The notes under the pieces were generated by a model, which saw only the letters and a list, made by a program, of their open reading frames with translations, searched no databases and was not told the origin of the DNA. A DNA stretch of 40,792 nucleotides, from assembly GCA_964389735.1 (NCBI GenBank), contig CAYMEJ010000003.1:1-40792 (forward strand). The letters run 5' to 3'. The DNA comes from an uncultured Muribaculaceae bacterium (GTDB lineage: Bacteria; Bacillota_I; Bacilli_A; RF39; UBA660). This document shows, in pieces, positions 4,193 to 23,121 of the stretch. The position numbers and the translations under genes were made by a program. Positions within the stretch are counted from its first letter, which is position 1; each line of letters opens with the position of its first letter.

Positions 4193-4936
4193 ATGAAGGA
4201 AAAAAAAATAATAATAGTATTAAGTGTTATATCAATTTTTATAATATTATTATGTGGAGTTATATACTTTATTAATTATTATATTAATTATGATAGATAT
4301 TATAAAATAGATTCTAGAGTTGATAATGTTTATAATACTAGGATACAAGATGCAGAAACAATAGGGTGGATTAAAATCCAAGGAACTGATATTGATTATC
4401 CAGTAATTAATGAGACAGATAATGCCTATTATTCTGGGGAAGATTATTTATGGAGAATTAATTCTTACAAGGAAGGTAACAATAGAGAAGTAATATATGG
4501 ACATAATATTTTGAATGTTTCGTCTAAGCCTATTGTTACTGATCCTGATCATACTAGATTTGAACAATTAATGTCATTTGTATATGAAGATTTTGCAAGT
4601 AAAAATCTTTATGTGCAATATTCAAAAGGTAGTAAGGATTATTTATATAAGATTTATGCAATTGGTTTTATAAAGAGAAATGATGAAAAAGGTAATTCTT
4701 TTTCAACTAAAGAAGAAACTAAAGAATATATAAAATCTACACTAAATAACAGTATATATAAATATAACGTTGATGTTAATGAGAATGATGAAATAATTTC
4801 TCTCATTACATGTACTAGATATTTTGGAGTAAGTGGAAAAAATCAATTTAGAGTTGATGCAAGATTGTTAAGAAAAAATGAAAGAATTACAAAATATAAT
4901 ATTGAAACAACTGGAAATTATGATATAATCAAATAA
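4193..4936 (+). CDS. srtB: Class B sortase
   Basis: The protein has an N-terminal TM anchor. TIGWIKIQGTDIDYPVINETDNAYY matches the SrtB IVGWIKLSGTSLNYPVLQG block. The catalytic His is in VIYGHN, the Cys in ISLITCT and the Arg in FRVDARL. Confidence 0.85.
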   Translation: MKEKKIIIVLSVISIFIILLCGVIYFINYYINYDRYYKIDSRVDNVYNTRIQDAETIGWIKIQGTDIDYPVINETDNAYYSGEDYLWRINSYKEGNNREVIYGHNILNVSSKPIVTDPDHTRFEQLMSFVYEDFASKNLYVQYSKGSKDYLYKIYAIGFIKRNDEKGNSFSTKEETKEYIKSTLNNSIYKYNVDVNENDEIISLITCTRYFGVSGKNQFRVDARLLRKNERITKYNIETTGNYDIIK

Positions 4937-4952: not shown

Positions 4953-7900
4953 ATGAGAAAGGTTCAAAAAAGAAATAGGAAAATATTATTTCTAACAGCA
5001 CTTTTTGTTGCAACGTTCTTCTGGTGTGACAATGTTTATGCTGATTGGTTTGGTAATAATTATATTTGTTTGGATTACAGTGTTGTTAAAGTTGATCCAA
5101 AAGCAGATAGTAAAAAAACAAAAGTTAAGGATATTCAAAATCTTACAAAACAGGATTTATATAATAGACATATTGCATATCCTGAAAGCATAGGTAAAGA
5201 GTTCGATGCTTGTATGGTACAAACAAATAATTATAAAACTTGTCAAAAGAAAAGAAGAGAACAAGAAATTTTATATGAAATAAATGTGCAATATACAGGT
5301 AGATCTTGTGTTAGACAATGGAATCCTGAAAATAATAGCTGGTTGTTTCAAACTTGTCCAACAACAGCAGATGCGAGAAAGTATGATATGAGTGTTATTA
5401 CAGATAATGATCATTTAACTTATACTTATAATGCTGCTACTAATAAATATGATATTAGTTTTCATCCTAATAAAGTTCGTGCTGATTATGCAAGTGTTAA
5501 AGGTTTAAAACTATCAATGGCTGGAAAAGTTGCAATGACAGTTGATGGTAAAACAAAAGAAATGTTTAAAACAGATGAACTTGGAAATCCTGAAAAAGTA
5601 ATACGTGAAAATATTGGTTTAGGAAATAATGGTACAATAACTGTTAGCCTTGATTTAGGAACAGATTTTTACTTTGTTTTCTATATAGCTAATGGTGGTA
5701 TCTGTGATGGAGCTAGAATTGGATATTATCAAGGAACTGTTCCTTCTAATATACCTAATCCATATAAGGATGCTTCAGTATGTACTAATTATAAAAATCT
5801 TTATAAGGGAACTGAAAATGAAGATTTAGCAAAAGAACTTGTTCCTTTATGTTATCAAGATGAAATAGATGGTACAAAGAAAACAGAAATACTTGATGAA
5901 ATAAATAAGGGTATTGCAACAGCAAATGCTGCACTTACTACTGTACAAACTAATAGTACAACAGGGTTAGATATGTCTTGTGAATTTGAACCTAACACTT
6001 ATAATCCTCTAACAAACGAAAATACTGTAAATAAAAGAAGTTTAGTTTATACTAATTTCTTAAATGTAGGTAATACAAAATATTGGAAAGCATATTGTAC
6101 AGAGAAAATGACAATTGAATATGATGAACCTAAAGCAGTTAATGCTGGTACAGGTTTTGCTTATCAAATAAAAATAACACTTGAAAGAGCTTGCGAACCG
6201 GTTCAAGTTGCACTTGTTCCATATTATCCACAATGTTCTTATACAGTTGAATGCTATGGAGGTCCTGCAAACCATAATGGTGAAGCTGGTGCTGGTCCTA
6301 GTAAAGCATTTGATACTTGTGTTAATAGTTGTGATGGTGGAAAATATACTCAAGAGTGTATTAATAAATGTAATACAGTTACAAATCAATTAAGTTCAAC
6401 TTCTAATAGTAAGGGTTGGGTTTCATTTATGAATGCAACTAAAGAAACTGTTGGAGTTTTAAGATTAGGAGTTTACAATTATAATTATGCAAATGAAGGC
6501 TTAGCTGGTATATGTAATGATGGTGGTACAAGATTACCTCGTGCTGAAGGATGCTGGGCTACTGAAAGTAATGAAGATTGTGGTGGAGATGGTTCTACAT
6601 ATTGTACTACTGCTCATGGTGTACAATTCACATATTTAGATGGATGTAATGCTAATGGTGAAGTTGGTGGAACAAAATGTATGGAAGTATATAGACAATA
6701 TCCATGTGTTCACGATGATGCACTTACAAATTATAGAAGAAGATTAAATGATTCAAGAAATGAATTAAATAATATAATAGCAATAATAAGTGATTACTCA
6801 TCAGGTGGAGATAATCATTATACAAAAGATGAAACATTTAATGCTAATGTAATAGATTCATATACTAATAAAGCAGTTTCATTCTCATCTAAAAATGATC
6901 CTAATAATAATAAATTATCTGTTAAAGCAGTTAATTCAGTAGTTAATTCAATGTCATATAATAAAACTCAAAATGGAAAGAATGAAACAGTTACATTAAA
7001 TGCTGGAAAGATTTCTGATAAGATTTTAGGTTATGCAGTTGGTGGAGTTTCTCAAAGCGAAATAGCAGTAAGTGTTAATAGATACATTGTTAAGAGAGTA
7101 GTTACTGTTGATTTCCCAATAGCATATGTACCTAGTTCAACTAATAATGATAAAGTAAAATATTCAACTACTGATCCTTCAACTAGTGGATTAAATATTT
7201 ACTATAATGGTGGAAATAAGTATTATACAAATTTATATTCTCCAGCAATTAATTCATATTATGGTTGGAGATCATATGTTGATAATAATAATCAATTAAG
7301 ATACTTTGATATTAATAGTAAATCTACTGATTCTTATACTAAAAATATTAAATATGTTATTAATAATATTGGTAGTTGGAATCAATGGGGTGGAGCAAAC
7401 AAGAAATTAGATCTTGAATGTTTCTATGGACTTATTAATAAATATTGTGTTTCATGTAATGTAAAAGATGAAATATCATTGAAACATGCTTGTAATACAA
7501 ATACAGATTTATGTACTACAGGTATTCAATACATTTTTAGACCAATTGATTTAAATGATGTTTTCCCTAATGACAGAGATCCAAGATGGAATTGGAGCAA
7601 TGCTTCTAAAATGACATTATTTAAGAATTATAATATTGATCCTACAAAATATACTTCTATGGTAGAGGAAGTAGGAAGTAGTAATAATACAATTTATAAG
7701 AATTCTAATACAGCACCTGGTGATGATGCAAATCCAGAATTAGATTATGAAATATATTTAACAAAAGGTAATATTTCAGCTATTAAGACTTATAATAAAG
7801 ATCATGAAAATTATTTGAATTATGATAATATGTCTTGTTCAAAAAATAAAGATGGTCAAATAAGTTGTAAGAGTGATTTCATTGGAAATACTTCTTATAT

Positions 7901-7967
7901 GACTTTATACCAAAGAAGAGATAATGAGTGCAATAATTCAGTTAGTGATACTGAATGTGCATATTAG
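4953..7967 (+). CDS. Large secreted cysteine-rich protein (1004 aa), function unknown; candidate adhesin or tip protein.
   Basis: RBS GGAGG. The Sec signal peptide reads MRKVQKRNRKILFLTALFVATFFWCDNVYA|DW. More than 30 Cys residues are spread over the mature protein. There is no C-terminal anchor or sorting signal. A conserved-looking C-terminal block reads GIQYIFRPIDLNDVFPNDRDPRWNW. Confidence 0.7.
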   Translation: MRKVQKRNRKILFLTALFVATFFWCDNVYADWFGNNYICLDYSVVKVDPKADSKKTKVKDIQNLTKQDLYNRHIAYPESIGKEFDACMVQTNNYKTCQKKRREQEILYEINVQYTGRSCVRQWNPENNSWLFQTCPTTADARKYDMSVITDNDHLTYTYNAATNKYDISFHPNKVRADYASVKGLKLSMAGKVAMTVDGKTKEMFKTDELGNPEKVIRENIGLGNNGTITVSLDLGTDFYFVFYIANGGICDGARIGYYQGTVPSNIPNPYKDASVCTNYKNLYKGTENEDLAKELVPLCYQDEIDGTKKTEILDEINKGIATANAALTTVQTNSTTGLDMSCEFEPNTYNPLTNENTVNKRSLVYTNFLNVGNTKYWKAYCTEKMTIEYDEPKAVNAGTGFAYQIKITLERACEPVQVALVPYYPQCSYTVECYGGPANHNGEAGAGPSKAFDTCVNSCDGGKYTQECINKCNTVTNQLSSTSNSKGWVSFMNATKETVGVLRLGVYNYNYANEGLAGICNDGGTRLPRAEGCWATESNEDCGGDGSTYCTTAHGVQFTYLDGCNANGEVGGTKCMEVYRQYPCVHDDALTNYRRRLNDSRNELNNIIAIISDYSSGGDNHYTKDETFNANVIDSYTNKAVSFSSKNDPNNNKLSVKAVNSVVNSMSYNKTQNGKNETVTLNAGKISDKILGYAVGGVSQSEIAVSVNRYIVKRVVTVDFPIAYVPSSTNNDKVKYSTTDPSTSGLNIYYNGGNKYYTNLYSPAINSYYGWRSYVDNNNQLRYFDINSKSTDSYTKNIKYVINNIGSWNQWGGANKKLDLECFYGLINKYCVSCNVKDEISLKHACNTNTDLCTTGIQYIFRPIDLNDVFPNDRDPRWNWSNASKMTLFKNYNIDPTKYTSMVEEVGSSNNTIYKNSNTAPGDDANPELDYEIYLTKGNISAIKTYNKDHENYLNYDNMSCSKNKDGQISCKSDFIGNTSYMTLYQRRDNECNNSVSDTECAY

Positions 7968-7989
7968 TAGTAGAAAGGTGGGATAATGA

Positions 7990-8415
7990 ATGAGTAAGGG
8001 AATGTTAGCAACTGGTGTAGTAATTCTTGGAATTTTTGCACTAGCTGTAGTTAATGTAATTCAAAACTATTCTTCAGGAAATGAACTGGACTACTACTTA
8101 TTAAAAGATACAACTGAGGCGGCAATGGTAGATGCCGTCGATGTTGGATTTTATAGACTTAGTGGTGGAGAATTAAGAATTGATAAAGAAAAATTTGTTG
8201 AAAGTTTTATTAGAAGATTTGCTGAAAGTGTAAATCAAGATCGTAATTATGATGTTAGATTTTATGATATAAATGAAACTCCTCCAAAGGTAAGTATTAA
8301 GATTGGATCTTCTACTAGTGTTACTTTTAGTGGTGATGATTTTGATATAAAAAATCAAATAGATGCTATACTTGAAACTAAATATCAAGAAAATAGACTT
8401 CTTGGTGAGGTTTAA
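7990..8415 (+). CDS. Small protein with an N-terminal hydrophobic segment; possible pseudopilin or minor pilin.
   Basis: 141 aa. The N-terminus MSKGMLATGVVILGIFALAVVNVIQ is pilin-like. The gene sits directly upstream of the cpaB-like gene. RBS is AAAGGTGGG. Confidence 0.35.
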   Translation: MSKGMLATGVVILGIFALAVVNVIQNYSSGNELDYYLLKDTTEAAMVDAVDVGFYRLSGGELRIDKEKFVESFIRRFAESVNQDRNYDVRFYDINETPPKVSIKIGSSTSVTFSGDDFDIKNQIDAILETKYQENRLLGEV

Positions 8416-8437
8416 AAGATAGAAAGGGTGAAATAAA

Positions 8438-9280
8438 ATGGGTAATAATATTACAATAGCAATCAAAAGACTATTTACAAATAAAAACACAGTTACTATA
8501 GTTGGTGTTTTACTTGGAATTGTTGTATTATACGTTGGTTATAATATGCGTATTAATAAAGAAATAAATCCTACTGAGGTTCCTATTGCTAAAAAACTTT
8601 TAGCACCAGGAACAAAGATTACATCTGATGTAATTGATGTAGTAAAAGTACCTCCTGCTATGCTTAGAGGAAATCCTTATAGAAATAGTAGTGAAGTAGT
8701 AGGAAAATATGTTAATTCTGATACAATTATACCTGCTGGTAGTTTATTTTATGATAGAAGTGTAAAGTCAAAATCTGAATTACCTGCATCAATTATATAT
8801 GATATACCAGATGGTTATTCTTTAGTTAACTTTGCAGTTGATACTACAAGTACTTATGGTAATGCAGTATATCCTGGTAATTATATTGATATATATTTAA
8901 AGATAGTTAATAAGATAACTGAAGGTGCAGAATTAAAAGAAGATGCTAATAAAATTCAATTAGGTAAATTAATTGAAAATGTAAAAGTTTTAGCAGTTCT
9001 TGATGCTACAGGTCAATCTGTATTTGCTAACTTAGATGAACAAAGAACACCAGCACAAATAATATTTGCTGTTCCAGAGGAATATCATATTTTATTAAGA
9101 AAAGCAATGTATTTAAGAACTTATGAAGCAACACTTATTCCTGTACCAACTAACAATTCACTTAAAGAAGAAAAAGGTGAAATTGCTATTTCAAGTGAAA
9201 GATTAAAATCATTTATAAATACAGTTACAGTATGGGATGAAACTACTACTGATGTTGATGATTCAATCTTAAATCAATAA
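8438..9280 (+). CDS. cpaB: Flp pilus assembly protein CpaB/RcpC-like (SAF domain plus RcpC-like C-terminus).
   Basis: N-terminal TM segment. The SAF-like block is VPIAKKLLAPGTKITSDVIDVVKVPPAML...SEVVGKYVNSDTIIPAGSLF. The C-terminal block is IENVKVLAVLDATGQ...PAQIIFAVPEEYHILLRKAMYL. Confidence 0.75.
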   Translation: MGNNITIAIKRLFTNKNTVTIVGVLLGIVVLYVGYNMRINKEINPTEVPIAKKLLAPGTKITSDVIDVVKVPPAMLRGNPYRNSSEVVGKYVNSDTIIPAGSLFYDRSVKSKSELPASIIYDIPDGYSLVNFAVDTTSTYGNAVYPGNYIDIYLKIVNKITEGAELKEDANKIQLGKLIENVKVLAVLDATGQSVFANLDEQRTPAQIIFAVPEEYHILLRKAMYLRTYEATLIPVPTNNSLKEEKGEIAISSERLKSFINTVTVWDETTTDVDDSILNQ

Positions 9281-9317
9281 TATAAAAAGAAAAGAATAAA
9301 CAAAAGGGGATTAGAGC

Positions 9318-10670
9318 ATGAATGGTAATATGTTTGAACAATTGGATTTTGGCGCATTTGATGCTTATATTAAGGATGATGATATAACAGATATTTCCTA
9401 TAGTAATAATGGGCAAATATGGCTTAGATCTTTGATAAAAGGGTCATATAGGATAGAAAATCCAGCTATAAATAATGCTGTTGTTGAAAAATTAGCATTC
9501 CAATGTTCTAATGTAATGGGAACGACGTTTAATATGGCTAATCCATTTTTAGATGCAGAGAGTGCAGAGTTACGTATGAATTTTGTACATGATTCTATTG
9601 CAACTAATGGAATAGCTCTTGTTATTCGTAAAACTCCAGCTAAAATTAGATTAAAAGAAGATACTTTATTACAAGAACAATATGTTACACAAGATATACA
9701 TGATTTTTTAATAAAATGTGTAGAAGGGCATTGTAATATAATTGTTTGTGGAGAAACTGGTTCAGGTAAAACTGAGTTTGTTAAGTACTTGGCTTCTCAT
9801 ACTAAAGAAAATGAGAAATTAATTTCTATAGAAGATACACTAGAACTTCACTTGGATAAGATTTATCCAAATAGAGATATTGTAGCAATGAAAACAAATA
9901 ATATTGCGGCATATTCAGATGTTCTTGTTACTTGTATGAGACAAAATCCAAAATGGATTCTTTTAGCCGAAGTTCGTAGTGCTGAGGCTGTTATGGCTGT
10001 ACGTAATTCAATTTCTTCTGGACATAATATTTTATCTACTATCCACTCTGATAAAGCTAGTGCAGTTCCACATAGAATGTACAGTTTGATGGAAACTGAT
10101 ATTGATGTTGAACAATTCTTAAAAACAATTTATAGATATGTTCAATTAGCAGTACATATAAAGGCATATTATAGTAAAGAATTACAAAAGTTTCATCGTG
10201 AAATAGATGAAGTCACTGAGTTCTTTATTAATGATAAAAATGAACCTGAATATAGAGTTTTATATCAAAAAACAATTTCAGGTAAAATAATTAAGAGAAA
10301 TCCTAGTAGACATTTGATGAATTATCTAGAAGGTCAAAACATTATGATTAAAGATTCGTTTGAAGGTGCTACTAATAAGACTGATGAAGAACTTGAGCAA
10401 GAGGAATGGAATATAATGCAAGAGAAAATAGATAATGAAAATAGTGAAACAATTGCTGAACCGGTAGTTGAAACACCAACAGAGTCTATTGAAACTCCAG
10501 TATTAGAAACACCTGTTGTGCAAAGTATACCAGTAGTTGAGGCACCGGTTGTTAATCCAACTCCTGTACAACAACCAATTGGTATTGAAACACCTCCAGT
10601 TGTAAATACTCCGGTATCTACGACTCCAAGGTTTATACAAAATTTAGATTCAAATGAAGTATTAGGATAA
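9318..10670 (+). CDS. tadA: TadA/CpaF-type secretion ATPase (T2SSE/VirB11 superfamily) with a roughly 100-aa acidic and Pro/Thr/Val-rich C-terminal extension.
   Basis: Walker A is IIVCGETGSGKTEF, the Asp box ISIEDTLELH, Walker B WILLAEVRSAEA and the His box SGHNILSTIHSD. The tail reads EPVVETPTESIETPVLETPVVQSIPVVEAPVVNPTPV... Confidence 0.85.
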   Translation: MNGNMFEQLDFGAFDAYIKDDDITDISYSNNGQIWLRSLIKGSYRIENPAINNAVVEKLAFQCSNVMGTTFNMANPFLDAESAELRMNFVHDSIATNGIALVIRKTPAKIRLKEDTLLQEQYVTQDIHDFLIKCVEGHCNIIVCGETGSGKTEFVKYLASHTKENEKLISIEDTLELHLDKIYPNRDIVAMKTNNIAAYSDVLVTCMRQNPKWILLAEVRSAEAVMAVRNSISSGHNILSTIHSDKASAVPHRMYSLMETDIDVEQFLKTIYRYVQLAVHIKAYYSKELQKFHREIDEVTEFFINDKNEPEYRVLYQKTISGKIIKRNPSRHLMNYLEGQNIMIKDSFEGATNKTDEELEQEEWNIMQEKIDNENSETIAEPVVETPTESIETPVLETPVVQSIPVVEAPVVNPTPVQQPIGIETPPVVNTPVSTTPRFIQNLDSNEVLG

Positions 10671-10679
10671 AAAAGGTAG

Positions 10680-11582
10680 GTGATTATAGTGGAATTAATT
10701 ATTCTTCTAGCAATCGCAATATTCGTAATTATATATCGTAGATATCGTGGTGAAAACGTATATAAGTTTATTGCAGATCAAGCAGGAGTAGTTTATGATA
10801 AGTTTGCTCCTTATTCATTTAAAATTGTTCGCGAAAAGACAAAACAATTAGGACAAGAATATACAACTAAACAATATGTTACGCAAGCTTTAGTATTTGC
10901 TTTATTTGCTGGTGTAATTTCTTATATGTATTTTTATAATTTATTAATATCTCTTGTATATATTTTTGTAGTAGAATTATCTATTCCATATTTAGCATTC
11001 TTAAGATGCAAGAAGGTATATAGTGAATTTATATTTGAACAAGTTCAAATATATACAACTAATACTATTATGGAATTTGCTACAACACAAAGTTTTGTAA
11101 AGTCACTTGAAGGTGTAGTTGCATCTGGTGTACTTGAAGATCCAATACTTAGTGATGTAAATGTAATGATATCTATGGCATATGAGAATGGTTCAATTGA
11201 TGAATCAATTCAATATATGGATAATAAATATGAATACTACATAGTTAAAAATATGCATCAATTATTCTTACAAATTACTAAAGAAGGTGCAAAAGATTCT
11301 GGTGAATCTTTAGAAAATATGCAATCTGATATAGATATGCTTGTAGAATCTGTTTATCGTGATAGAATGGAGAGAAATACTTTCCATAAATCATTCCTTA
11401 AATATGGTGTTACACTTTACTTAATGGTTATGTTAGTACAATATTTATTAGGTAGGGATTCTTATATAAAATTATTATCTAATCCATTTATGGTATTTGT
11501 TCTACATGCAATATTAATTTTAAATAGTTATTTTCTTCTTAGAGGAGAAAAATATTATAACGAGAATGTAGGTGCTGAATAG
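10680..11582 (+). CDS. tadB: TadB-like polytopic inner-membrane platform protein (T2SSF-type).
   Basis: 300 aa. The topology is TM, cytoplasmic stretch, TM pair, a ~130-aa helical cytoplasmic domain, then a TM pair. The gene follows tadA directly. The start is GTG at 10680 or 10689. Confidence 0.6.
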   Translation: MIIVELIILLAIAIFVIIYRRYRGENVYKFIADQAGVVYDKFAPYSFKIVREKTKQLGQEYTTKQYVTQALVFALFAGVISYMYFYNLLISLVYIFVVELSIPYLAFLRCKKVYSEFIFEQVQIYTTNTIMEFATTQSFVKSLEGVVASGVLEDPILSDVNVMISMAYENGSIDESIQYMDNKYEYYIVKNMHQLFLQITKEGAKDSGESLENMQSDIDMLVESVYRDRMERNTFHKSFLKYGVTLYLMVMLVQYLLGRDSYIKLLSNPFMVFVLHAILILNSYFLLRGEKYYNENVGAE

Positions 11583-12368
11583 ATGGAAGTTATTATATTT
11601 GGTGTTATTATACTGTTCGTATTGATATATAATAATACTGTAGATGGTAGAAAGTTTATCAAAGATAATGAACATTTATTTCAAGCTCTTAAAGAAGAGG
11701 ATTATGATTTCTTAGTAGCAGCTAGATATGGTGAAGATGCTGATCCTGCTGTATTATTTCAAAAGAGGATAAATTTAGCGTTTGTTACGATTGTAATATT
11801 CTTATTTATATTCTTAGCTGAATTAACGGTTATAAATATAGTATTAGCTATATTTATAGGATTTGTAGTTTTTAAATCTTCTTATACTAAACTTAAAAAA
11901 TATTATAAGAGACATTTACATGATATTGATGTAATGCTTCCATATTATTTAAAAAGTTTAGAAATATTAGTACAACATTATACTGTTCCAGTAGCAATAT
12001 CAAAATCAATTGATGATGCTCCTGAAATTTTTAAACCAGGACTTAGAGATTTAATTGCTAAGATAGATTCTGGTGATTCTAGTATTGATCCTTATATGGA
12101 ATTTGCTAATGCATATCCAGTTAGAGATTCAATGAGAATGATGAGATTATTATATAGACTTGGACTTGGTTCTCAAGAAAGAAAACAAGAAAGATTATTA
12201 ATGTTTTCTAGAACTGTATCTGCTTTACAAGCTAAAGCAAGAGATCAAAAATATAAGGAAAGACTTCATTTTATGGAAAGTCAAACAATGATTATGCTTG
12301 TTGCAACAGGTGGTGGAGTCATGTTATTAATTCTAGCATCTATGTTAATGCTATTTACAGGAAGTTAG
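11583..12368 (+). CDS. tadC: TadC-like polytopic platform protein (T2SSF-type).
   Basis: The start abuts the tadB-like stop (TAG ATG). The architecture is the same TM/helical-domain/TM arrangement, with LPYYLKSLEILVQHYTVPVAISKSIDDAPEIFKPGLRDLIAKIDSGDS... Confidence 0.6.
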   Translation: MEVIIFGVIILFVLIYNNTVDGRKFIKDNEHLFQALKEEDYDFLVAARYGEDADPAVLFQKRINLAFVTIVIFLFIFLAELTVINIVLAIFIGFVVFKSSYTKLKKYYKRHLHDIDVMLPYYLKSLEILVQHYTVPVAISKSIDDAPEIFKPGLRDLIAKIDSGDSSIDPYMEFANAYPVRDSMRMMRLLYRLGLGSQERKQERLLMFSRTVSALQAKARDQKYKERLHFMESQTMIMLVATGGGVMLLILASMLMLFTGS

Positions 12369-12377
12369 AATAATTTA

Positions 12378-12406
12378 TTGAATTAGATTTATAAATTTGT
12401 TATAAT
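12378..12406 (+). promoter_or_regulatory. Sigma-A-type promoter for the pilin gene.
   Basis: TTGAAT (12378-12383), a 17-nt spacer ending in TGt, then TATAAT (12401-12406). This gives a near-consensus -35, an extended -10 and a consensus -10. It lies ~30 nt upstream of the pilin start codon. Confidence 0.65.
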
Positions 12407-12436
12407 ATAAATAATAGAGAGAGGAGACTGATATTT

Positions 12437-12601
12437 ATGAAAGAAGCGACTGGTGAATTAAATATGACAGTTGTTACAATTATAGCAATTGGAGCTGTAA
12501 TTGCATTTTTCTGGGTAATGTGGCCTAAAATACAAGAAACAATAAATGGACAATGGGATGATATTTCTACAGTAGATGAAAATAAAGGTATTGTTGAATA
12601 A
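12437..12601 (+). CDS. flp: Small Flp-like (type IVb/Tad-type) pilin, 54 aa; not present in the supplied ORF track.
   Basis: My own translation is MKEATGELNMTVVTIIAIGAVIAFFWVMWPKIQETINGQWDDISTVDENKGIVE. It has a short charged leader ending in Gly, one hydrophobic helix and a short polar tail. RBS GAGAGGAG lies at 12419-12426. The gene sits between the tadC-like and tadE-like genes. Confidence 0.55.
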   Translation: MKEATGELNMTVVTIIAIGAVIAFFWVMWPKIQETINGQWDDISTVDENKGIVE

Positions 12602-12633
12602 TATAATTAGATTATAGAAAAGTGGTGTAGATA

Positions 12634-13155
12634 ATGAGAGACGCTATTGGTGGGACTTTAACAATTCAAATAATAATAATATTCTTGATTATAGTTAATA
12701 GCTATTTAGCGTTTACTGTTAACTACACTAAGGCTTTTAGAGTTAAGAACCAGATTATTAGTATAATTGAAAAGAATGAAGGATTAACTGATCAAGCAAG
12801 AAAAGAAATAGAAGAATATATGGATAAAGTTAGTTATTCTGCTAGTTATATGAATAGTTGTTCTTCACTATCAAGAGATGCTAGTCAAGGTGAAGGTAAA
12901 GAGTGGAAATCTATGACACATCAAGGTGGTGCTAAAACATCAATATATTGTTATGCTATTAATAAACAAGATGCAACAGGTGGTGTTGATGAAGGTACTA
13001 CTTATGCTGGTTCATATTATTCTGTAGCAACATTTGTTGATATTAATATTCCAATACTAAAGACTTTTTTTGGAGAAATAGCTACTAAATTTGCTATAAA
13101 GGGTGAAACAAAAATGATATATTCATCTGGTAATAATAGTGAATTAAGTGAATAA
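12634..13155 (+). CDS. TadE-like pseudopilin or pilus assembly protein.
   Basis: 173 aa. The N-terminus is MRDAIGGTLTIQIIIIFLIIVNSYLAF, a short leader followed by a hydrophobic helix. The gene lies inside the Tad-like module. RBS is AAGTGGTG. Confidence 0.4.
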   Translation: MRDAIGGTLTIQIIIIFLIIVNSYLAFTVNYTKAFRVKNQIISIIEKNEGLTDQARKEIEEYMDKVSYSASYMNSCSSLSRDASQGEGKEWKSMTHQGGAKTSIYCYAINKQDATGGVDEGTTYAGSYYSVATFVDINIPILKTFFGEIATKFAIKGETKMIYSSGNNSELSE

Positions 13156-13183
13156 AAGATAAAAATTAAAGGGGTGGCATAAC

Positions 13184-14194
13184 ATGAATGTAATAGTTTC
13201 TAACGAAAAACAAACATTGTTAGCTGATTTAAATATAGAAATTATAAAATCAATAAATGGTGTCTTTACAGCCGATGAATTGGTAGATATGTTTGCCAAT
13301 TTCTTTTTTGGTAGAATGATTTTAGATTTAACAGCATTAAAGGATTATAAGGATCCTAGAAATTTACAAAAGATTTCTATGACTTTGGATGTTGAAAAAA
13401 TAATTATTTTGTTACCAGAAGATCCTGAATGTTTAGCACCAAAATACTTATCAAGATTAATTTCTATGGGTATTTATAATTTTACTACTAATCTTGAAGG
13501 TATTAATTATTTAATAGATAATCCTAATACTTATAGAGATGTTGCACATATACATCAAATAGATGATACGCAGATGGTAGAAACACAAATGGTTGTTAAT
13601 AATGGTGCAATGGCGAATGGTGTTCCTGGTGGGGATATTATAAATACTACTATTGTTAATAATGGTGCATTTATATTAGGAATAAAGAATTTAACTGAAC
13701 ATGCTGGAGCATCAACTCTTGCATATATGTTAAAGAAAGAACTTGAAACTAATTTTTCTGTTCCTACAGTAGCAGTAGAAATAGATAAACATGATTTTAT
13801 GTTTTTTAATGATAAAAATATGTTTTCAGTTACAAATGATAATTTGCCAACTGAATTACTAAAACATAGAGATGCTTCAGTTATTTTAGTTGATTTAAAT
13901 GAAACTGGAAATGCAGAAGTATGTACTGATGTTATATATTTGCTTGAACCATCTTCTATTAAACTTAACAGATTAATGAGAAGGGATAGAAAAGCATTTG
14001 AAAAGTTACGTGGTAGAAAGATTGTATTATCTCAATGCTTATTAAATAGTAGTGATGTTGCAGAACTTGAGTATGAAGCGAAAGCAAAATTCTTTTACAC
14101 ATTACCACCTATGGATGAAAGAGGTAATAATAGTCAAGTACTTAGTGATATGCTGATTCGATTAGGGTTAGTACAGTCAAGTAATATGATGTAA
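13184..14194 (+). CDS. TadZ/CpaE-like protein: an N-terminal receiver-like domain plus a degenerate ParA/MinD-type ATPase domain.
   Basis: The N-terminus has a flavodoxin-like pattern (MNVIVSNE...ILDL...KIIILLPED...LISMGIYNF). In the C-terminal MinD-like fold the Walker A position reads GIKNLTEHAGASTLAYMLK in place of KGGxGKT. It is followed by ILVDLNETG and VIYLLEPSSIKLNRL. Confidence 0.45.
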   Translation: MNVIVSNEKQTLLADLNIEIIKSINGVFTADELVDMFANFFFGRMILDLTALKDYKDPRNLQKISMTLDVEKIIILLPEDPECLAPKYLSRLISMGIYNFTTNLEGINYLIDNPNTYRDVAHIHQIDDTQMVETQMVVNNGAMANGVPGGDIINTTIVNNGAFILGIKNLTEHAGASTLAYMLKKELETNFSVPTVAVEIDKHDFMFFNDKNMFSVTNDNLPTELLKHRDASVILVDLNETGNAEVCTDVIYLLEPSSIKLNRLMRRDRKAFEKLRGRKIVLSQCLLNSSDVAELEYEAKAKFFYTLPPMDERGNNSQVLSDMLIRLGLVQSSNMM

Positions 14195-14231
14195 ATTAAT
14201 GTAAAATAATTTATATTGTATTGACATTATT

Positions 14232-14240
14232 TGATATAAT
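14232..14240 (+). promoter_or_regulatory. Extended -10 promoter element upstream of the T4SS genes.
   Basis: TGaTATAAT at 14232-14240, ~34 nt upstream of the 14274 start. RBS AAGGAGGG follows. Confidence 0.4.
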
Positions 14241-14273
14241 AAAGTATTCTATAAATATAAGGAGGGAATTAAA

Positions 14274-14615
14274 ATGGAATTAATTCAATTATTAGAAGGT
14301 TGTCCTGAAGATTTAGTACCAATATTCAGTTTTATTAAAAAAGGTATTTATCCTATTATACAAATTGGTATCCCAATTTTATTAATCGTTATGGGGTCAA
14401 TAGATTTAGGTAAAGCTGTTATTTCTCAAGATGATAAAGAGATAAAGGGAGCTACTAGTAAGCTTATTAAGCGTGCTATAGCAGCTGTAGCTGTATTCTT
14501 TGTTACAACTATTGTTTCTTTATTAATGGGTATGTTCTCTGAATCTGGTGCAACAGATAATTCTAATGTAGAAGGAACAACAAGTTGGAAAGATTGCTGG
14601 TCAGCAATAGATTAA
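14274..14615 (+). CDS. VirB2/TrbC-like pilin-like conjugal transfer protein, paralog 1 (no signal peptide).
   Basis: The protein forms a two-helix hairpin (IYPIIQIGIPILLIVMGSIDLG and AIAAVAVFFVTTIVSLLMGMF) joined by a basic loop, KAVISQDDKEIKGATSKLIKR. It is clearly paralogous to the product of 14711-15115. Confidence 0.55.
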   Translation: MELIQLLEGCPEDLVPIFSFIKKGIYPIIQIGIPILLIVMGSIDLGKAVISQDDKEIKGATSKLIKRAIAAVAVFFVTTIVSLLMGMFSESGATDNSNVEGTTSWKDCWSAID

Positions 14616-14625
14616 TATTATTTAT

Positions 14626-14664
14626 AAAATAATAACAAATATATGTTTTGTTATTATTTTTTTT
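14626..14664 (+). terminator. AT-rich hairpin plus T-run (terminator or attenuator) between the two VirB2-like genes.
   Basis: AAAATAATAACAAA (14626-14639) pairs with TTTGTTATTATTTT (14647-14660) around a 7-nt loop, and further Ts follow. Only one G:C pair is present, so the hairpin is weak. Confidence 0.4.
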
Positions 14665-14665
14665 A

Positions 14666-14674
14666 TGTTATAAT
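14666..14674 (+). promoter_or_regulatory. Extended -10 promoter element upstream of VirB2-like paralog 2.
   Basis: TGtTATAAT at 14666-14674, ~37 nt upstream of the ATG at 14711. Confidence 0.4.
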
Positions 14675-14710
14675 TGTATGTAGAATAGTTTACTATGAAG
14701 GAGTGTTTGC

Positions 14711-15115
14711 ATGAAGAAAATAGAAAAGATTTTGATAATACTTTTTTTAGCATTTACTGTGTTTGCAGTGTCAACTGATGTTGCCTATGCAAAAAGCTAT
14801 ACACCTGATACAAATGTACAAAGTTGTGAAGGCTTATTAGGTGCTGATTTTGTTAATTTTTTAAATGATGAAGTGTTTTTATGGGTAAAAATTGCGGTAC
14901 CTATTATATTAATTATAATGTGTACAATAGATTTTGCAAAAGCAGTTATTAATAATGATAAAGATGCATTGGCAAAGGCTACTTCTAACGTTGTAAAGAG
15001 ATGTATTGTGGCAGTTGCAATATTTTTCTTACCATTTATTATAATATATGTAATGAAAAATGCTAGTGTTGGTGGAACTCCAATTATGGAAGATCCATTA
15101 TGTGGATTGGGGTGA
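14711..15115 (+). CDS. VirB2/TrbC-like pilin-like conjugal transfer protein, paralog 2 (with Sec signal peptide).
   Basis: The signal peptide is MKKIEKILIILFLAFTVFAVSTDVAYA|K. It is followed by the hairpin VKIAVPIILIIMCTIDFAKAVINNDKDALAKATSNVVKRCIVAVAIFFLPFIIIYVM. RBS is GAAGGAG. Confidence 0.6.
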   Translation: MKKIEKILIILFLAFTVFAVSTDVAYAKSYTPDTNVQSCEGLLGADFVNFLNDEVFLWVKIAVPIILIIMCTIDFAKAVINNDKDALAKATSNVVKRCIVAVAIFFLPFIIIYVMKNASVGGTPIMEDPLCGLG

Positions 15116-15121
15116 TATTAA

Positions 15122-16825
15122 ATGCAAAATTTGATTTTTCTTGCTGATGCAAGAGGTATGGCTTTTAATATAATCCGTAATTTCTTGGTATTCTTAGATA
15201 GTGCAATATATACTTTGATGGGATGGATATTAGAAGCAATATTTAATATATCTGGAACTGAGTTATTAGAAGCTACAGTATATGAAACAATTATGCAAAG
15301 AATATATGTTATTCTTGGTATATTTATGTTATTTAAATTATCTATTTCTTTAATTGGATATTTGGTAAATCCTGATAGCATTGCAGATAAAGAAAAAGGT
15401 ATGGGAAAAGTTGTAATGAGAGCAATGTTAATGATTATTATGTTAATGATGCTTACACCTTTTTTTAAGATAATGACAAGAGTTCAAGGATATATATTAC
15501 CTGTTATTCCTAAAGTTATTTTAGGAAAAGATATGGAAACTGGTGGTGCTACTGCTGCAGCAACGGCTAAAACTGTTGGTGAAGAAATGGCGATAGTTAC
15601 ATATAGGGCATTCTTTAAACTTGATGAAACTTGTACTGATGGTGGTAGTGATGATACTAGAATTCATGGTATGACAGTATCAGAAATATCAAAACAAGAT
15701 TTGGAACAAGAACCATGTGGAAAAAATGAAGATTTATATAAATATGATTATTTACCTATTGTACCATTAGTGGTTGGAATAGTAATTGATTTATTATTAG
15801 TTGGATTTGCAATAGATATTGGTAGTCGTGTATTTAAATTAGCAATATTAAGGGTTATTGCACCTATACCAATATTGAGTTATATTGATCCTAAATCATC
15901 TAAAGATAATGGAACATTTAATAATTGGTTAAAATCCTTTATGGGAACTTGGTTGGATTTATTTATTAAATTAGCAATAATTTATTTTGTATTATTTGTA
16001 ATAGAAATAATAGCGGAGGGTGGACTTGTTGGTTTAGATATAACAACACCAGCTGGCGCATTTGCTTCAATATTTGTAATAATTGGTTTATTGTTCTTTG
16101 CTAAACAAGCTCCAGCATTTATTATGAATGCACTTGGAATAAAAGGTAAAGGACTTGGAGTTGGTCTTAGTGGTTCACTTGCAGGTTTAGCTGCATTAAC
16201 TGGTGGAGCTGGAGTGGCTGGAGCTTTTAGAGCAGCTGGTGAACAAATGGAAGCAGGAAGTGCTGCAGCAGCTGAAGGTAAACCAGTTGGAAGTGGTTGG
16301 TCTAGAGGTAAAGATATTGCAGCTCAAATTAGAACCAATGATGATAAAGCAAAAGCTCCAACAATGATGGAACGAGTATCAAAAGCTGGCGCATTATTTC
16401 ATGGAGTTAATTCTGATACAGTTGGGGAGACAAAAAACAGTATGTATCGTGCACAAGATGCAGCTGCCAATGTTACTCAATTTAGAGAAAAAGTTTCAAA
16501 CGGTCAAACTTTAACTACTACTGAAGCTATGTCAGTTATTAAACATAGTGGTGAAAGTGTTAGAAATTCTGCTGGAATTGATAGTACTACTTGGTCAACA
16601 ATGTCTGATTCTCAAAAAATCAATACTGTTAATAGTATGTCTGGTGATCAATGGAATACTCTTGTTAATACAGAAAATACAAATGCTCAAAAAGCAAAAT
16701 CTTACTACGAAAAAACTGTCAAATATGCTGTTAAACATAATGTTTCTACTGAAACACCTGTTGCAGAAGATATTGGAGTTAAAGGGTTTAACAAGAAATT
16801 CGATCCTCATAAACATGATAGATAG
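15122..16825 (+). CDS. VirB6/TrbL-like polytopic T4SS channel protein with a hydrophilic C-terminal extension.
   Basis: 567 aa with at least 6 hydrophobic helices, a Gly/Ala-rich segment (GLGVGLSGSLAGLAALTGGAGVAGAF) and a ~200-aa polar tail. It sits between the VirB2-like and VirB3/VirB4-like genes. Confidence 0.55.
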   Translation: MQNLIFLADARGMAFNIIRNFLVFLDSAIYTLMGWILEAIFNISGTELLEATVYETIMQRIYVILGIFMLFKLSISLIGYLVNPDSIADKEKGMGKVVMRAMLMIIMLMMLTPFFKIMTRVQGYILPVIPKVILGKDMETGGATAAATAKTVGEEMAIVTYRAFFKLDETCTDGGSDDTRIHGMTVSEISKQDLEQEPCGKNEDLYKYDYLPIVPLVVGIVIDLLLVGFAIDIGSRVFKLAILRVIAPIPILSYIDPKSSKDNGTFNNWLKSFMGTWLDLFIKLAIIYFVLFVIEIIAEGGLVGLDITTPAGAFASIFVIIGLLFFAKQAPAFIMNALGIKGKGLGVGLSGSLAGLAALTGGAGVAGAFRAAGEQMEAGSAAAAEGKPVGSGWSRGKDIAAQIRTNDDKAKAPTMMERVSKAGALFHGVNSDTVGETKNSMYRAQDAAANVTQFREKVSNGQTLTTTEAMSVIKHSGESVRNSAGIDSTTWSTMSDSQKINTVNSMSGDQWNTLVNTENTNAQKAKSYYEKTVKYAVKHNVSTETPVAEDIGVKGFNKKFDPHKHDR

Positions 16826-16845
16826 AAAGGAATGTGTGATATATA

Positions 16846-17157
16846 GTGAATAATTATTTAATACCTGCTAATACCAAAAGAGGGCAATTAATTGCAGGTG
16901 TATTTAAACCAATGGATTTAGTTATATTCTTAATAGGAATAGGTATTACATTTCTATTATTTATAATTGTTCCATTGGACAAAGCTCCTGTTGCTGCAGC
17001 GTGTACAATCCCTGGCTTAATTTGTACATTCTTAGTAATACCAATGCCGTATTACCATAATATTGCAACAGCAGCAATGGAGATGATTAAATTTTTAACG
17101 CAAAGACAAAAATTTGTGTGGAGAGGTTGGTGTTTTAGAGATGGCACAGACAAATAG
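16846..17157 (+). CDS. VirB3/PrgI-like small membrane protein.
   Basis: 103 aa. IPANTKRGQLIAGVFKPMDLVIFLIGIGITFLLFII is followed by a second helix. The gene lies directly upstream of VirB4 and overlaps it. The start is GTG and the RBS is weak. Confidence 0.45.
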   Translation: MNNYLIPANTKRGQLIAGVFKPMDLVIFLIGIGITFLLFIIVPLDKAPVAAACTIPGLICTFLVIPMPYYHNIATAAMEMIKFLTQRQKFVWRGWCFRDGTDK

Positions 17158-17686
17158 TAAATATACTGAAGATTGGTTACCATTACAAGCTATTAATAAT
17201 GGTATGATTGTACTTCCAAATCAAGAAAAAGTTGCTGGAGTAAAAATTACTCCTCGTAATATATTTATACTTGATGAAGATTCACAAACTAATATTATGA
17301 TTGCATTAAAAAACTTTTATAATATGTTTGATTTTGAATTTTGGTTAATAGTTGCAGATAGACCTGTTGATATATCTGTGTATTTATCTCAATTACAACT
17401 TTTATATCAAGAACAACCTAATCCTGCAATTAGAAAATTAATAAATGAAGATATTCAAAAAGGTAATATGTTTATGAATAATAATGTAGTTGATACAGAA
17501 TATTTCATATTATTTAAAGAAAAAAATCTTGAATTGATTCAAAAGAAAATTCGTATGTTAATTACTGGTTTATCTCAAGCAGGTTTAACTGCTAGACAAA
17601 CAAGTAATGAAGATATGAGAATTATTCTTGATAATTTCTTAAATGGTGGTAAAACTACTGAGTTTGGGACGGTGATGTCTGCATGA
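17141..17686 (+). CDS. VirB4-family N-terminal domain encoded as a separate ORF.
   Basis: YTEDWLPLQAINNGMIVLPNQEKVAGVKITPRNIFILDEDSQTNIMIALKNFYNMFDFEFWLIV matches the N-terminal pattern of Gram-positive VirB4 proteins (PrgJ, TcpF, Orf16). The likely start is the ATG at 17141. The ORF ends in an ATGA overlap with the next ORF. Confidence 0.6.
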   Translation: MAQTNSKYTEDWLPLQAINNGMIVLPNQEKVAGVKITPRNIFILDEDSQTNIMIALKNFYNMFDFEFWLIVADRPVDISVYLSQLQLLYQEQPNPAIRKLINEDIQKGNMFMNNNVVDTEYFILFKEKNLELIQKKIRMLITGLSQAGLTARQTSNEDMRIILDNFLNGGKTTEFGTVMSA

Positions 17687-19470
17687 TAGATATAAAAACA
17701 CAAGTAGCTCCTAAAGGACTACAATTTAATCCAAGTGATTTCTTTATTAGTGATAAGTATGCGACTATTTTGACAGTTGTATCATATCCTAAATATATTT
17801 CACCAGGTTTTCTATCTTCACTTACTAGCATGTCTGGTATTAAGATAGTTATTAAACACATTCCTGTACCTTTTTCTACAATGTCTAAAATGTTAAATAA
17901 GCAAATTGCTGAATTAAAAGTTAGATATCAAGAAGAAAAAGATCAAACTATGAAAGAACGTATAAGACAAGATGCTGAATCTTTGGAATATTTTATTTCA
18001 ATGTTAGCAGGTTCACAAGCTAAAATATTTGATTTTCAAATGCATATTATGATTACTGCAGATACTAAAGAAGATTTGGAAATGAGAAAAATAAATGTTA
18101 AGAATTATTTGGACGCAATGCAATTAAAGGGAGTTGCTTTAAGATTTGAACAAGAAAAAGTTCTTAAATCAATAGTACCAATATTCCCTAAACAAGATAT
18201 TGAAGAAAGAATAGGAACTCCAATTCCTTCTCCAACAATTGCTGCAATGTATCCATTTATATTTGATAGTATTAAAGATCCGGGTCTTTCTACATTGCTT
18301 GGTGTAGATTTCTCAGGTGGGGTTATTTTATTTAATCAATTCTTATATCAAATTAAGAAAGAAAATAACAGAAATAATGCTAATATGATTATACTTGGTA
18401 CTTCAGGTAGTGGTAAATCTACTGCTGCTAAATTAATGATGAGAAGTAATATTCGTAATGGTAATCAAATTGTTGCAATTGACCCTGAAAATGAACTTGA
18501 AGATATGACTAAGGCTTATGGTGGTGAAACTATTGATCTTGGTAAGGGTGGAGAATATGGTATGATTAATCCACTACAAATTGTAATGGATTCTGATGAA
18601 GAAGAAATTTCTCAAGGACTTGGTTATACAATCCTTACCAGAACACTACAATTCTTAAAAGGATTTATGAAGTATTATGATCCTTCTATTACTGAAGATG
18701 TATTAACATTATTTAGTGAAGTTGTACAAGATACTTATAGAAGATTTGGTATTGATTTTAATACTGATTTTACTAAACATAAAGCAGCGGATTTTCCGAC
18801 GTTCTCTGATGTGTATGCTACTATAAAAGGTCGTTTATTATCAATGACTGATCGTACACAAGAACGTGATATAATGGAAAGACTAGAACTTAAAATTAGA
18901 CCAATTACACAAGAATTAAAATATTATTTTGATGGGCATACAACAATTGATTCAAATACAGATTTTATAGTATTTAATATAAAAGAGTTAATGAATTCTG
19001 ATGAAAATATACGTAATGCATTATTCTTCAATGTACTTAAGTATGCATGGGGATTATGTCTTGATAAATCAGTTAATACATTATTGATGGTTGATGAAGC
19101 CCATGTACTTTTAGCAGGTAATAATGCATTAGGAGCAGATTTCTTAGGACAAGTTCAAAGACGTGCTCGTAAGTATAATACTGGTTCAATTATAATAACT
19201 CAACAACCTAGTGACTTTGCTGATCCTGCTGTTATAACACAAGGTAAAGCGATATTTGATAATGCATCTTATTATTTAATAATGGGATTAAAGAAACAAG
19301 CAACTGAAGATTTATCATTATTAATAGATTTAAATGAGAATGAAAAGGAAAGTATTAAACGTTATTCACAAGGTGAAGCTCTATTTGTATGTGGAGATAG
19401 ACGTATGAGAATAAATGTTATTTTATCAAATGAAGAATTAGAATCATTTGGTAGTGGTGGAGGATTCTAG
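17683..19470 (+). CDS. virB4: VirB4-family T4SS ATPase (central and C-terminal ATPase part).
   Basis: Walker A is IILGTSGSGKSTAAK, Walker B LLMVDEAHVLL. IIITQQPSDF is present, and the N-terminal block is APKGLQFNPSDFFISDKYATILTVVSYPKYISPGFLSSL. Confidence 0.9.
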   Translation: MIDIKTQVAPKGLQFNPSDFFISDKYATILTVVSYPKYISPGFLSSLTSMSGIKIVIKHIPVPFSTMSKMLNKQIAELKVRYQEEKDQTMKERIRQDAESLEYFISMLAGSQAKIFDFQMHIMITADTKEDLEMRKINVKNYLDAMQLKGVALRFEQEKVLKSIVPIFPKQDIEERIGTPIPSPTIAAMYPFIFDSIKDPGLSTLLGVDFSGGVILFNQFLYQIKKENNRNNANMIILGTSGSGKSTAAKLMMRSNIRNGNQIVAIDPENELEDMTKAYGGETIDLGKGGEYGMINPLQIVMDSDEEEISQGLGYTILTRTLQFLKGFMKYYDPSITEDVLTLFSEVVQDTYRRFGIDFNTDFTKHKAADFPTFSDVYATIKGRLLSMTDRTQERDIMERLELKIRPITQELKYYFDGHTTIDSNTDFIVFNIKELMNSDENIRNALFFNVLKYAWGLCLDKSVNTLLMVDEAHVLLAGNNALGADFLGQVQRRARKYNTGSIIITQQPSDFADPAVITQGKAIFDNASYYLIMGLKKQATEDLSLLIDLNENEKESIKRYSQGEALFVCGDRRMRINVILSNEELESFGSGGGF

Positions 19471-19504
19471 AAAAACAACAAAGCAGTTTAGGTGGTGATT
19501 ATCA

Positions 19505-22354: not shown

Positions 22355-22364
22355 AGGAGGAAAT

Positions 22365-23039
22365 ATGAAGAAAAAATTATTATTTATATTACTTTTTCCA
22401 TTATTTTTAACTGGTTGTTCAACAAATTATTATATGGAAATATATAATGATAAAATAAATGAAGAATATACAATAAATTTTGGATCAGATGAAGTAGGTA
22501 ATTTAACTCCTCTTAATTATGCAAATCAAACATTATATGATTATTTTGGTAATTGCGATGATATAGGAATGAGAAAATTTAAGAATATGTCTGAAGGATA
22601 TGGAATTCAATCTTCTAATTCATATAATTATAAAGAATTTAAATCAAATTTAATAGGGATAAAGCAATGTTATAATGTAGTAGATTTTGCTTATAATACT
22701 AAATATATTGCAATTGCTACTACTAATCAATTCAAGTGTTATGAAATATTTGAAAATATGGAAAAATTAACTATTAATATTAAATCTAATCATAAAATGA
22801 TTGAAAATAATGCTGATAGTGTTAAGAATAATACTTATACTTGGAATATTAGTAAGTACAATGCAGACAATAAACCTATAAAAATTAAATTTTCTAAAGA
22901 TAAATATGTTTTTAACTATAATGGTGAATTTACAAAAAAAGTTATTTACATTGCTGTAATATCAGGTATAATATTAAGTGTTGGTTTATCAATAAGAGGT
23001 TATTTTAAACATAAAAGTAAATTAGCTAATAAAATATAA
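22365..23039 (+). CDS. Lipoprotein with an additional C-terminal TM segment and a basic tail; T4SS-associated, function unknown.
   Basis: RBS GAGGAGG is followed by the ATG at 22365. The lipobox is MKKKLLFILLFPLFLTG|C. The C-terminus reads VIYIAVISGIILSVGLSIRGYFKHKSKLANKI. Confidence 0.7.
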   Translation: MKKKLLFILLFPLFLTGCSTNYYMEIYNDKINEEYTINFGSDEVGNLTPLNYANQTLYDYFGNCDDIGMRKFKNMSEGYGIQSSNSYNYKEFKSNLIGIKQCYNVVDFAYNTKYIAIATTNQFKCYEIFENMEKLTINIKSNHKMIENNADSVKNNTYTWNISKYNADNKPIKIKFSKDKYVFNYNGEFTKKVIYIAVISGIILSVGLSIRGYFKHKSKLANKI

Positions 23040-23052
23040 GTTTAATATAAAC

Positions 23053-23100
23053 ACAATATAACAATATAACAATATAACAATATAACAATATAACAATATA
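23053..23100. repeat. Perfect tandem repeat: six copies of the 8-bp unit ACAATATA.
   Basis: Read directly: ACAATATA x 6 with no mismatch, preceded by a partial AATATAA at 23044-23050. The array lies in the 82-bp gap between the lipoprotein gene and the coupling-protein gene, 21 bp upstream of the ATG at 23122. Confidence 0.95.
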
Positions 23101-23121
23101 AGCTGAAAGAAGGTTTTAACT

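Follow-up and report, generated by a model that had tools for sequence, protein, structure and literature searches.

It is an open question how Gram-positive type IV secretion systems (T4SSs) reach their partners and hold them, and VirB2-like pili were proposed for these systems only in a December 2025 preprint (10.64898/2025.12.18.695078). The question is touched by a locus in a 40,792-nt stretch of contig CAYMEJ010000003.1 (hereafter, the window) from an uncultured bacterium of the RF39 lineage, in which genes reminiscent of pilus assembly run into a block of T4SS genes. Between the two lies a 54-aa open reading frame (ORF) at 12437-12601 that an initial annotation had taken for a divergent Flp/type IV pilin gene with its own promoter. 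Is this ORF a gene, and does it encode the subunit of a filament? In our view, its product is probably the major subunit of a type IV filament that is divergent, of Tad or archaeal type and coupled to the T4SS, a reading supported by the layout of the protein and its genomic context, not by homology.

With regard to the first part of the question, our reading of the sequence and the ORF list agreed with the initial annotation on the ORF and its translation. The gene had stayed hidden because it is shorter than the length threshold of the ORF tool (default cut-off, 60 aa). It is separated from the stop of the upstream gene (12368) by a 68-nt gap that contains the whole promoter described below:

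12437..12601, + strand: pilin-like small gene of 54 aa, from the ATG at 12437 to the stop at 12599-12601

Relatives of the protein have already been called in public data, where a protein search returned at least 499 homologues (47-66 aa), all of which lack both an informative name and a Pfam domain. A profile search covering 1.84 billion cluster representatives gave 690 clusters (50% identity) at E ≤ 0.001 and 238 at E ≤ 1e-10, with matches to the family profile beginning at residue 1 in every case. Neither the protein nor the DNA of the locus had a match in plasmid and phage records, so that there is no existing annotation and no sign of carriage on sequenced plasmids. A search of the literature for the peptide motif found no paper; the proposed main subunit is not mentioned in the literature searched and had neither a name nor a Pfam family.

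We retrieved related loci via the upstream 261-aa membrane protein and not via the small ORF, which makes the comparison an unbiased test of synteny. A relative of this anchor occurs in at least 549 species genomes, and 80 loci from different species were kept; their source genomes are nearly all those of uncultured gut Bacilli, “Tenericutes” or Mycoplasmatota metagenome-assembled genomes (MAGs). The proposal implied that relatives keep a small ORF at the same position, and they do: the small gene was found on the same strand downstream of the anchor in 75/80 loci (family hidden Markov model (HMM) run on six-frame ORFs). The five loci without it comprise two contig ends and three breakpoints that also lose every downstream gene, and where downstream synteny is retained the small gene follows the anchor in 75/75 loci.

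A short ORF in AT-rich DNA that matches no curated family could be a chance ORF or a non-coding leader region, an explanation that the comparative data refute and to which we give next to no credence. Across 48 gap-free orthologues, pN/pS was 0.17 (codons 2-30) and 0.50 (codons 31-40), and invariant residues (e.g., A4, T5, G6, T11, T14 and A20) are encoded by two to four synonymous codons; together with the unbroken synteny and the 690 clusters, these values speak against chance. A non-coding role is likewise poorly served, as no Rfam family matches the small-gene region and its mRNA fold is unexceptional (z = −1.8), with no special structure. We conclude that 12437-12601 is a protein-coding gene under strong constraint.

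Next to the gene, the promoter elements and the ribosome-binding site were found at the positions that the initial annotation had given:

12378..12383, + strand: −35 hexamer TTGAAT (sequence read)
12398..12406, + strand: extended −10 box TGtTATAAT, 17-nt spacer from the −35 hexamer (sequence read)
12419..12426, + strand: ribosome-binding site GAGAGGAG, with 10 nt between AGGAG and ATG

Transcription is predicted to start near 12413, and a GAAAGGA/AAGGAGG motif is kept at an equal distance from the start codon in the related loci. The further claim that this is the best promoter match in the block did not hold, since the best-scoring promoter-like site lies at 4902-4929 (TTGAAA-16-TATAAT with a TG extension, 11/12), inside the end of a sortase gene and 24 nt before a gene for a 1004-aa protein. 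The window is very AT-rich (22-34% GC), so a lone promoter-like match in it says little; a promoter-consensus scan of 600-20000 returned 125 sites vs. 144 expected in shuffles. The promoter is taken as real because it is conserved across loci, not because of its score within the window. A strict TGNTATAAT box lies at most 110 nt upstream of the small gene in 62/70 loci, compared with 0.012 expected per locus (as derived from the remainder of the same loci), and four further loci carry TGNTATACT or TGATAAAAT upstream of it. The end of the box is 22-55 nt from the ATG (median, 34), and a hexamer of the type TTGTTA/GTTACA/TTGTAA precedes the box by 16-17 nt across loci with diverging surroundings. 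The box is present before the small gene in 61/69 loci, whereas each of the 12 other conserved block genes has it in 0-18%; before the 1004-aa gene, the TGNTATAAT box is conserved in 13% of loci.

In several loci 1.5-3.2 kb of unrelated genes stand between the upstream gene and the pilin-like gene, and the box stays before the latter. In L081-L083 the intervening DNA includes an opposite-strand gene and the box still adjoins the small gene, and a divergent variant of the locus (L084-L086) retains TTGATA-17-TATAAT. In the window itself the promoter is internal to a run of same-strand genes, with no terminator ahead of it. The initial proposal of an own promoter inside the gene block is in this way borne out and is specific to one of 13 genes; the comparisons show a dedicated, conserved, predicted sigma-A-type promoter for the small gene, which heads the downstream gene run. 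Such an internal promoter may raise the dosage of the subunit, so that it is made in excess as the initial annotation had proposed.

The junction between the 261-aa gene and the small gene was itself a recurrent insertion point, with inserts of 1.5-3.2 kb in L002, L004, L005, L006 and L010 (about 8780-12030) and in L081-L083 (7010-10000). The insert of L006 encodes an amine-oxidase-type flavoprotein and a 511-aa polytopic protein, and that of L081-L083 two genes of unknown type (444 and 461 aa). In L001, L063 and L076 the block breaks directly after the 261-aa gene, and in L001 housekeeping genes (aminopeptidase, RimP, NusA) occupy 8786-16780 after the break; the half with the small gene and the T4SS either sits elsewhere in these genomes or has been lost.

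What kind of protein does the gene encode? Three segments can be told apart:

12437..12454, + strand: predicted leader MKEATG, with an invariant Gly at putative position −1
12455..12526, + strand: nearly invariant hydrophobic helix ELNMTVVTIIAIGAVIAFFWVMWP (alignment, hydropathy, pN/pS 0.17)
12527..12598, + strand: variable acidic C-terminal tail, predicted to be extracytoplasmic (alignment, pN/pS, Cys counts)

Residues 1-30 are near-invariant throughout the family (MKEATGE[LM]NMTV[VI]T..IA...FFW.MWP), K2, A4, T5 and G6 of the leader are invariant, and the single hydrophobic segment spans residues 8-29. The tail is hypervariable, ranges from about 20 to 110 aa across the family and is rich in Asn, Thr, Ser, Asp and Gly. 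Among 93 members with Cys-bearing tails, 96% have 2, 4 or 6 Cys, and these even counts imply disulfides and an extracytoplasmic tail. The tryptic peptide expected of the 54-aa protein is IQETINGQWDDISTVDENK. The layout that the initial annotation had called pilin-like, namely a short leader that ends in an invariant Gly, followed by a single hydrophobic helix and a tail that varies, was in this way recovered from the alignment. The 54-aa size with one hydrophobic helix after a short Gly-ending leader is that of Flp-like proteins, and a conserved N-terminal helix with a variable C-terminal part agrees with type IV filament subunits in the broad sense; in type IV pilin evolution it is the buried helix that is conserved and the exposed part that varies.

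A variable exposed tail on a conserved anchor would also be expected of an uncleaved, membrane-anchored surface-variable protein, e.g., a recognition or exclusion determinant of the transfer system, whose N-terminus served only as anchor and docking site. The leader (residues 1-7) is conserved like the helix, which is unusual for a segment that is to be discarded, and no peptidase was found nearby. Classical type IVa pilins, however, also have short and highly conserved leaders, and a tail of 20-25 residues would be very short for a receptor. Since the leader is also carried by proteins of 125-175 aa, which in the context of an ATPase and platform genes points to a common assembly route, we regard a surface-variable protein as very unlikely.

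The longer leader-bearing proteins are represented in the window by the gene that follows the small one:

12634..13155, + strand: 173-aa protein, candidate minor pilin or pseudopilin (MRDAIGG leader and hydrophobic helix)

Its family (125-175 aa) conserves M1, [RK]2, [DE]3, A4 and G6. A scan for M[KRQ][DEAN][AS]xG that took in the window together with 85 related loci gave 166 matches at 21,999 possible starts, 163 of which precede a hydrophobic helix. All 163 are on the operon strand and fall solely within the small family and the family of 125-175 aa, with one to three such genes per locus, and in an hhalign comparison of the two families the best local match was exactly residues 1-7. A class III-type leader is in this way common to the putative major and minor subunits of one system. 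Some loci carry two paralogues of the larger leader-sharing protein and others two tandem small genes; Tad loci carry flp-1 and flp-2. Compared with true TadE, the 173-aa family gave a weak match (E = 0.015) at the homologous helix segment.

The context on which the filament reading draws consists of the following genes:

4193..4936, + strand: sortase-like gene (PF04203, 27.2 bits vs. a cut-off of 26.6; kept in 69/80 loci)
4953..7967, + strand: 1004-aa secreted protein (kept in 71/80 loci)
7990..8415, + strand: DUF5411 protein with an N-terminal helix (PF17424, 3.2e-52)
8438..9280, + strand: CpaB/RcpC-like protein (TIGR03177, 1.3e-11, below the curated cut-off)
9318..10670, + strand: VirB11/FlaI/CpaF-clade secretion ATPase (Pfam T2SSE, 2.8e-26)
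10680..11582, + strand: 300-aa polytopic membrane protein, TadB-like platform candidate (position after the ATPase)
11583..12368, + strand: 261-aa polytopic membrane protein, TadC-like platform candidate and synteny anchor (position)
13184..14194, + strand: 336-aa conserved protein (kept in 73 loci)
14274..25407, + strand: Gram-positive-type T4SS genes (domain searches)

The sortase-like gene and the gene for the 1004-aa protein stand at the head of the block, the gene order of which is kept in the 80 loci and in a divergent Clostridia-type variant. The small gene is encoded with an ATPase of the PilB/TadA superfamily, as befits a type IV filament, and this ATPase is also matched by the NCBIfam VirB11 and TadA-family models. 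The CpaB/RcpC-like protein scored 28.5 bits against PF16976 (cut-off, 28.8) and has orthologues recorded as RcpC. The N-termini of the DUF5411 proteins read MNK[GA]MLTVGIILL across loci; an “A-T-G” motif common to them and the small protein was seen in the window only, is not conserved across loci and was dropped. The 300-aa and 261-aa proteins appear to be weak paralogues (hhalign E = 0.004, probability 8%). For the 336-aa protein there was no Pfam or PDB match, and its identification as TadZ/CpaE was unsupported (hhalign to CpaE, E = 0.09).

We then compared the locus with known systems. The small protein resembles Flp/Fap pilins (Tad, type IVc, PF04964) in its 50-60 aa, Gly-ending leader, one helix and short variable tail; the likeness extends to its neighbours, which include a CpaB-like gene, a TadA-clade ATPase with two polytopic proteins after it and larger TadE-like proteins, and to the occasional tandem duplicates of the small gene. 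Unlike Flp, it lacks G|xxxxEY, has a Glu at +1 in place of Glu5-Tyr6, shows no profile similarity and has no TadV at the locus, and unlike Tad loci the present one belongs to a monoderm host, places the pilin-like gene after the platform genes and is fused to a T4SS. In archaeal type IV pilins and archaellins (PF07790, PF04021) the leader is likewise short and basic, with cleavage after Gly or Ala, and Glu5 is absent, and the ATPase is about as near to FlaI as to CpaF; here the differences are the bacterial host and that no FlaK/PibD-type peptidase was seen. VirB2/PrgF pilins, which are also small, hydrophobic and T4SS-linked, are two-helix hairpins with a Sec-type signal, whereas the small protein has one hydrophobic segment and no PF18895 match. 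The small protein would work like an Flp or archaeal pilin yet fails the tests of Flp membership.

A 2022 study described an uncharacterized operon of CpaF, PilC/GspF and DUF5411 genes in Roseburia, Ruminococcus and Eubacterium, the remaining genes of which resembled nothing known and included no recognizable pilin (PMC9523054). Long-tailed members of the small family sit in loci ordered like this operon, and if the pilin reading is true the small gene supplies its missing pilin. The module is present in uncultured gut Bacilli (at least 549 species-level genomes) and, with longer-tailed small proteins, in Clostridia-type loci.

A number of results weigh against the filament reading, the first of which concern family membership. 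At E ≤ 0.1 the 54-aa protein had no match in Pfam or NCBIfam, at E ≤ 10 it matched no pilin model either, and none of 30 family members matched Flp (PF04964) even at E ≤ 10; hhalign against two annotated Flp pilins was null (E = 0.23 over 4 columns), and one of the 30 members touched the archaeal Pilin_N model PF07790 (E = 0.1). As the initial annotation had noted, the Flp motif G|xxxxEY with its Glu5-Tyr6 is absent from the small family, in which the invariant Gly6 is followed by E-L-N-[LM]-T-V. The classical Glu5 is missing as well, with invariant Thr at +5 and Val at +6, neither TIGR02532 nor PF07963 matched, and the invariant Glu at +1 is the only acidic residue in this stretch after the putative cleavage site. 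The small protein is not, by these sequence comparisons, an Flp family member; of the idea of a divergent Flp/type IV pilin, the layout and the pilus-assembly-like context stood, and membership in Flp did not (HMM and hhalign).

The second group concerns processing. We searched for a prepilin peptidase in the window and the 80 related loci, which is the scope of these results. No ORF of the window contains a Peptidase_A24 domain or a GxGD motif, and tblastn with two annotated TadV proteins found nothing in the window or in the 80 loci (~1.2 Mb), so that no cognate TadV-type peptidase turned up there for the putative cleavage of the leader. Could the sortase-like enzyme, rather than an aspartyl prepilin peptidase, process or link proteins at A-T-G? 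Its gene is widely kept, and A-T-G is invariant in the small protein; no LPXTG-type sorting signal occurs at any protein end in the window, where a sortase substrate is not apparent. We think this highly improbable, given that sortases require Thr, whereas the 173-aa family has I, F, V, L, M or Y before the Gly, and given the topology, with the motif N-terminal and predicted to be cytoplasmic and sortase active sites being extracellular. A C-terminal sorting signal is also lacking.

The third group concerns the machine. Against PDB sequences the ATPase matched HP0525/VirB11 (1e-17), FlaI (5e-17) and CpaF (1e-14), with PilB and PilT much farther away, and is as close to VirB11 as to CpaF or FlaI. 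The two membrane proteins had no Pfam match in the search of the window ORFs, a profile of the 261-aa protein found nothing among PDB sequences, and hhalign against five annotated TadB/C proteins gave E = 0.2-0.4 (261-aa protein, E = 0.4); they occupy the TadB/TadC position, yet these comparisons do not identify them statistically as T2SSF proteins. The AF2 model of the 261-aa protein was unusable (pLDDT 54), because the homologues used were all at least 73% identical. For the 173-aa protein the model was better (pLDDT 77.9, pTM 0.72; pLDDT ≥ 90 over residues 1-60), with a 46-residue N-terminal helix (2-47), two short helices and a 4-stranded sheet. This modeled arrangement resembles the lollipop topology of pilins, a description of topology only, because Foldseek found nothing at E ≤ 0.001 in PDB and BFVD.

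Among plasmid proteins, the ATPase is most closely related to members of the “CpaF/VirB11 family” from conjugative plasmids of Bacillus and Listeria. In pBamB1895, a plasmid of the pLS20 family, the region 3302-11235 is syntenic with the locus and encodes a MucBP adhesin, a CpaF/VirB11 ATPase and two membrane proteins (243-267 aa), followed by a 120-aa protein that resembles the 173-aa family (E = 0.004), a one-helix protein of ~47 aa and small two-helix proteins. The pLS20-family module lies inside a Gram-positive T4SS operon, and differs from the present locus in that genes 37-41 have no MKEATG leader and no CpaB-like gene. Homology of the small protein to pLS20 gene 41 was considered and set aside as not significant (shuffle p about 0.04). 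The synteny suggests an apparatus of the same kind for genes 37-41; they have been listed as a putative VirB11 and T4SS parts of unknown function (PMC8557374), which again sits uneasily with a filament.

These observations give rise to the main rival explanation, that the small protein is a non-polymerizing, single-pass membrane subunit of the ATPase/T4SS machine (assembly factor or stator-like), positioned like pLS20 gene 41. The equally VirB11-like and CpaF-like ATPase, the lack of pilin homology and of a peptidase at the locus, and the syntenic pLS20 set, annotated as unknown within a T4SS, would all agree with it. For an internal part, however, a hypervariable tail with even Cys counts would be odd, as would a strong dedicated promoter unique in the block, and a leader common to helix-plus-sheet proteins fits poorly, as does tandem duplication of the gene. 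With the similarity to gene 41 not significant either, we hold a machine subunit to be unlikely, though more credible than the other rivals.

Returning to the filament reading, we propose the following mechanism. The prepilin would insert into the membrane with its MKEATG leader in the cytoplasm and its tail outside, and a prepilin-type peptidase encoded elsewhere would cut after the invariant Gly6. The mature 48-residue subunit would begin with Glu, which may neutralize the buried N-terminus, a task performed by Glu5 in classical pilins. The VirB11/FlaI/CpaF-clade ATPase, acting via the two polytopic proteins, would pull subunits from the membrane, and these would stack through their invariant helices, so that the variable, often disulfide-bonded tails coat the filament surface. 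The filament, which would probably provide cell contact for the adjacent T4SS, may be primed or tipped by the leader-sharing proteins of 125-175 aa.

A bolder version would make this a new branch of type IV filaments, with Glu at the start of the subunit and no Glu5, maturation without a locus-encoded A24 peptidase (by an unrecognized enzyme or none), and a filament that is inherited with, and integral to, a Gram-positive T4SS that lacks a relaxase and has been retained by hundreds of reduced-genome gut Bacilli species; the hybrid of type IV filament and T4SS would serve contact-dependent exchange of DNA or protein rather than ordinary plasmid conjugation. We put this forward as a speculation that is rather unlikely to hold in full. 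The unusual N-terminus, with Glu1 and without Glu5, bears on what is essential in type IV filament assembly, as does the missing peptidase, and a named subunit makes three systems testable, namely the present module, the CpaF/PilC/DUF5411 operon and, by synteny, pLS20 genes 37-41.

The T4SS part of the block encodes two weak VirB2-like proteins, a VirB6-like protein, VirB4, a cell-wall hydrolase with glucosaminidase and CHAP domains, and a coupling protein (T4CP). The VirB2-like genes at 14274-14615 and 14711-15115 encode small two-helix proteins, one of which (14274) has a weak match to the T4SS_pilin family PF18895, and the related loci L006 and L010 carry two to three copies of such genes. 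They look like VirB2/PrgF-like conjugative pilin arrays, in which case the locus would have two different filament candidates; the Tad- or archaeal-like module would give the Gram-positive T4SS a second, unrelated one.

In L084-L086 (519-1676 and 10001-10552) the pilin-like genes are long, Cys-rich and in tandem (94 and 82 aa). Genes for a thioredoxin/PedC-like protein and an Rce1-like CPBP intramembrane protease lie divergently upstream of them, and could constitute a disulfide-forming, possibly processing pair.

No relaxase, integrase or tRNA was found anywhere in the 40.8-kb window. Relaxase-less, vertically kept T4SSs have been reported for Patescibacteria (PMC12102498), and the present T4SS block may be a system of that type. 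Housekeeping genes (rhodanese, RmuC, TrpS, a PBP5-type carboxypeptidase and RluB) occupy the flank at 25443-40649, directly after the block (766-25407). The same flank includes, at 36297-37070, a domain of a YunB-type sporulation protein (5e-26), in a genome with relatives that are labelled as Tenericutes or Mycoplasmatota-like Bacilli MAGs.

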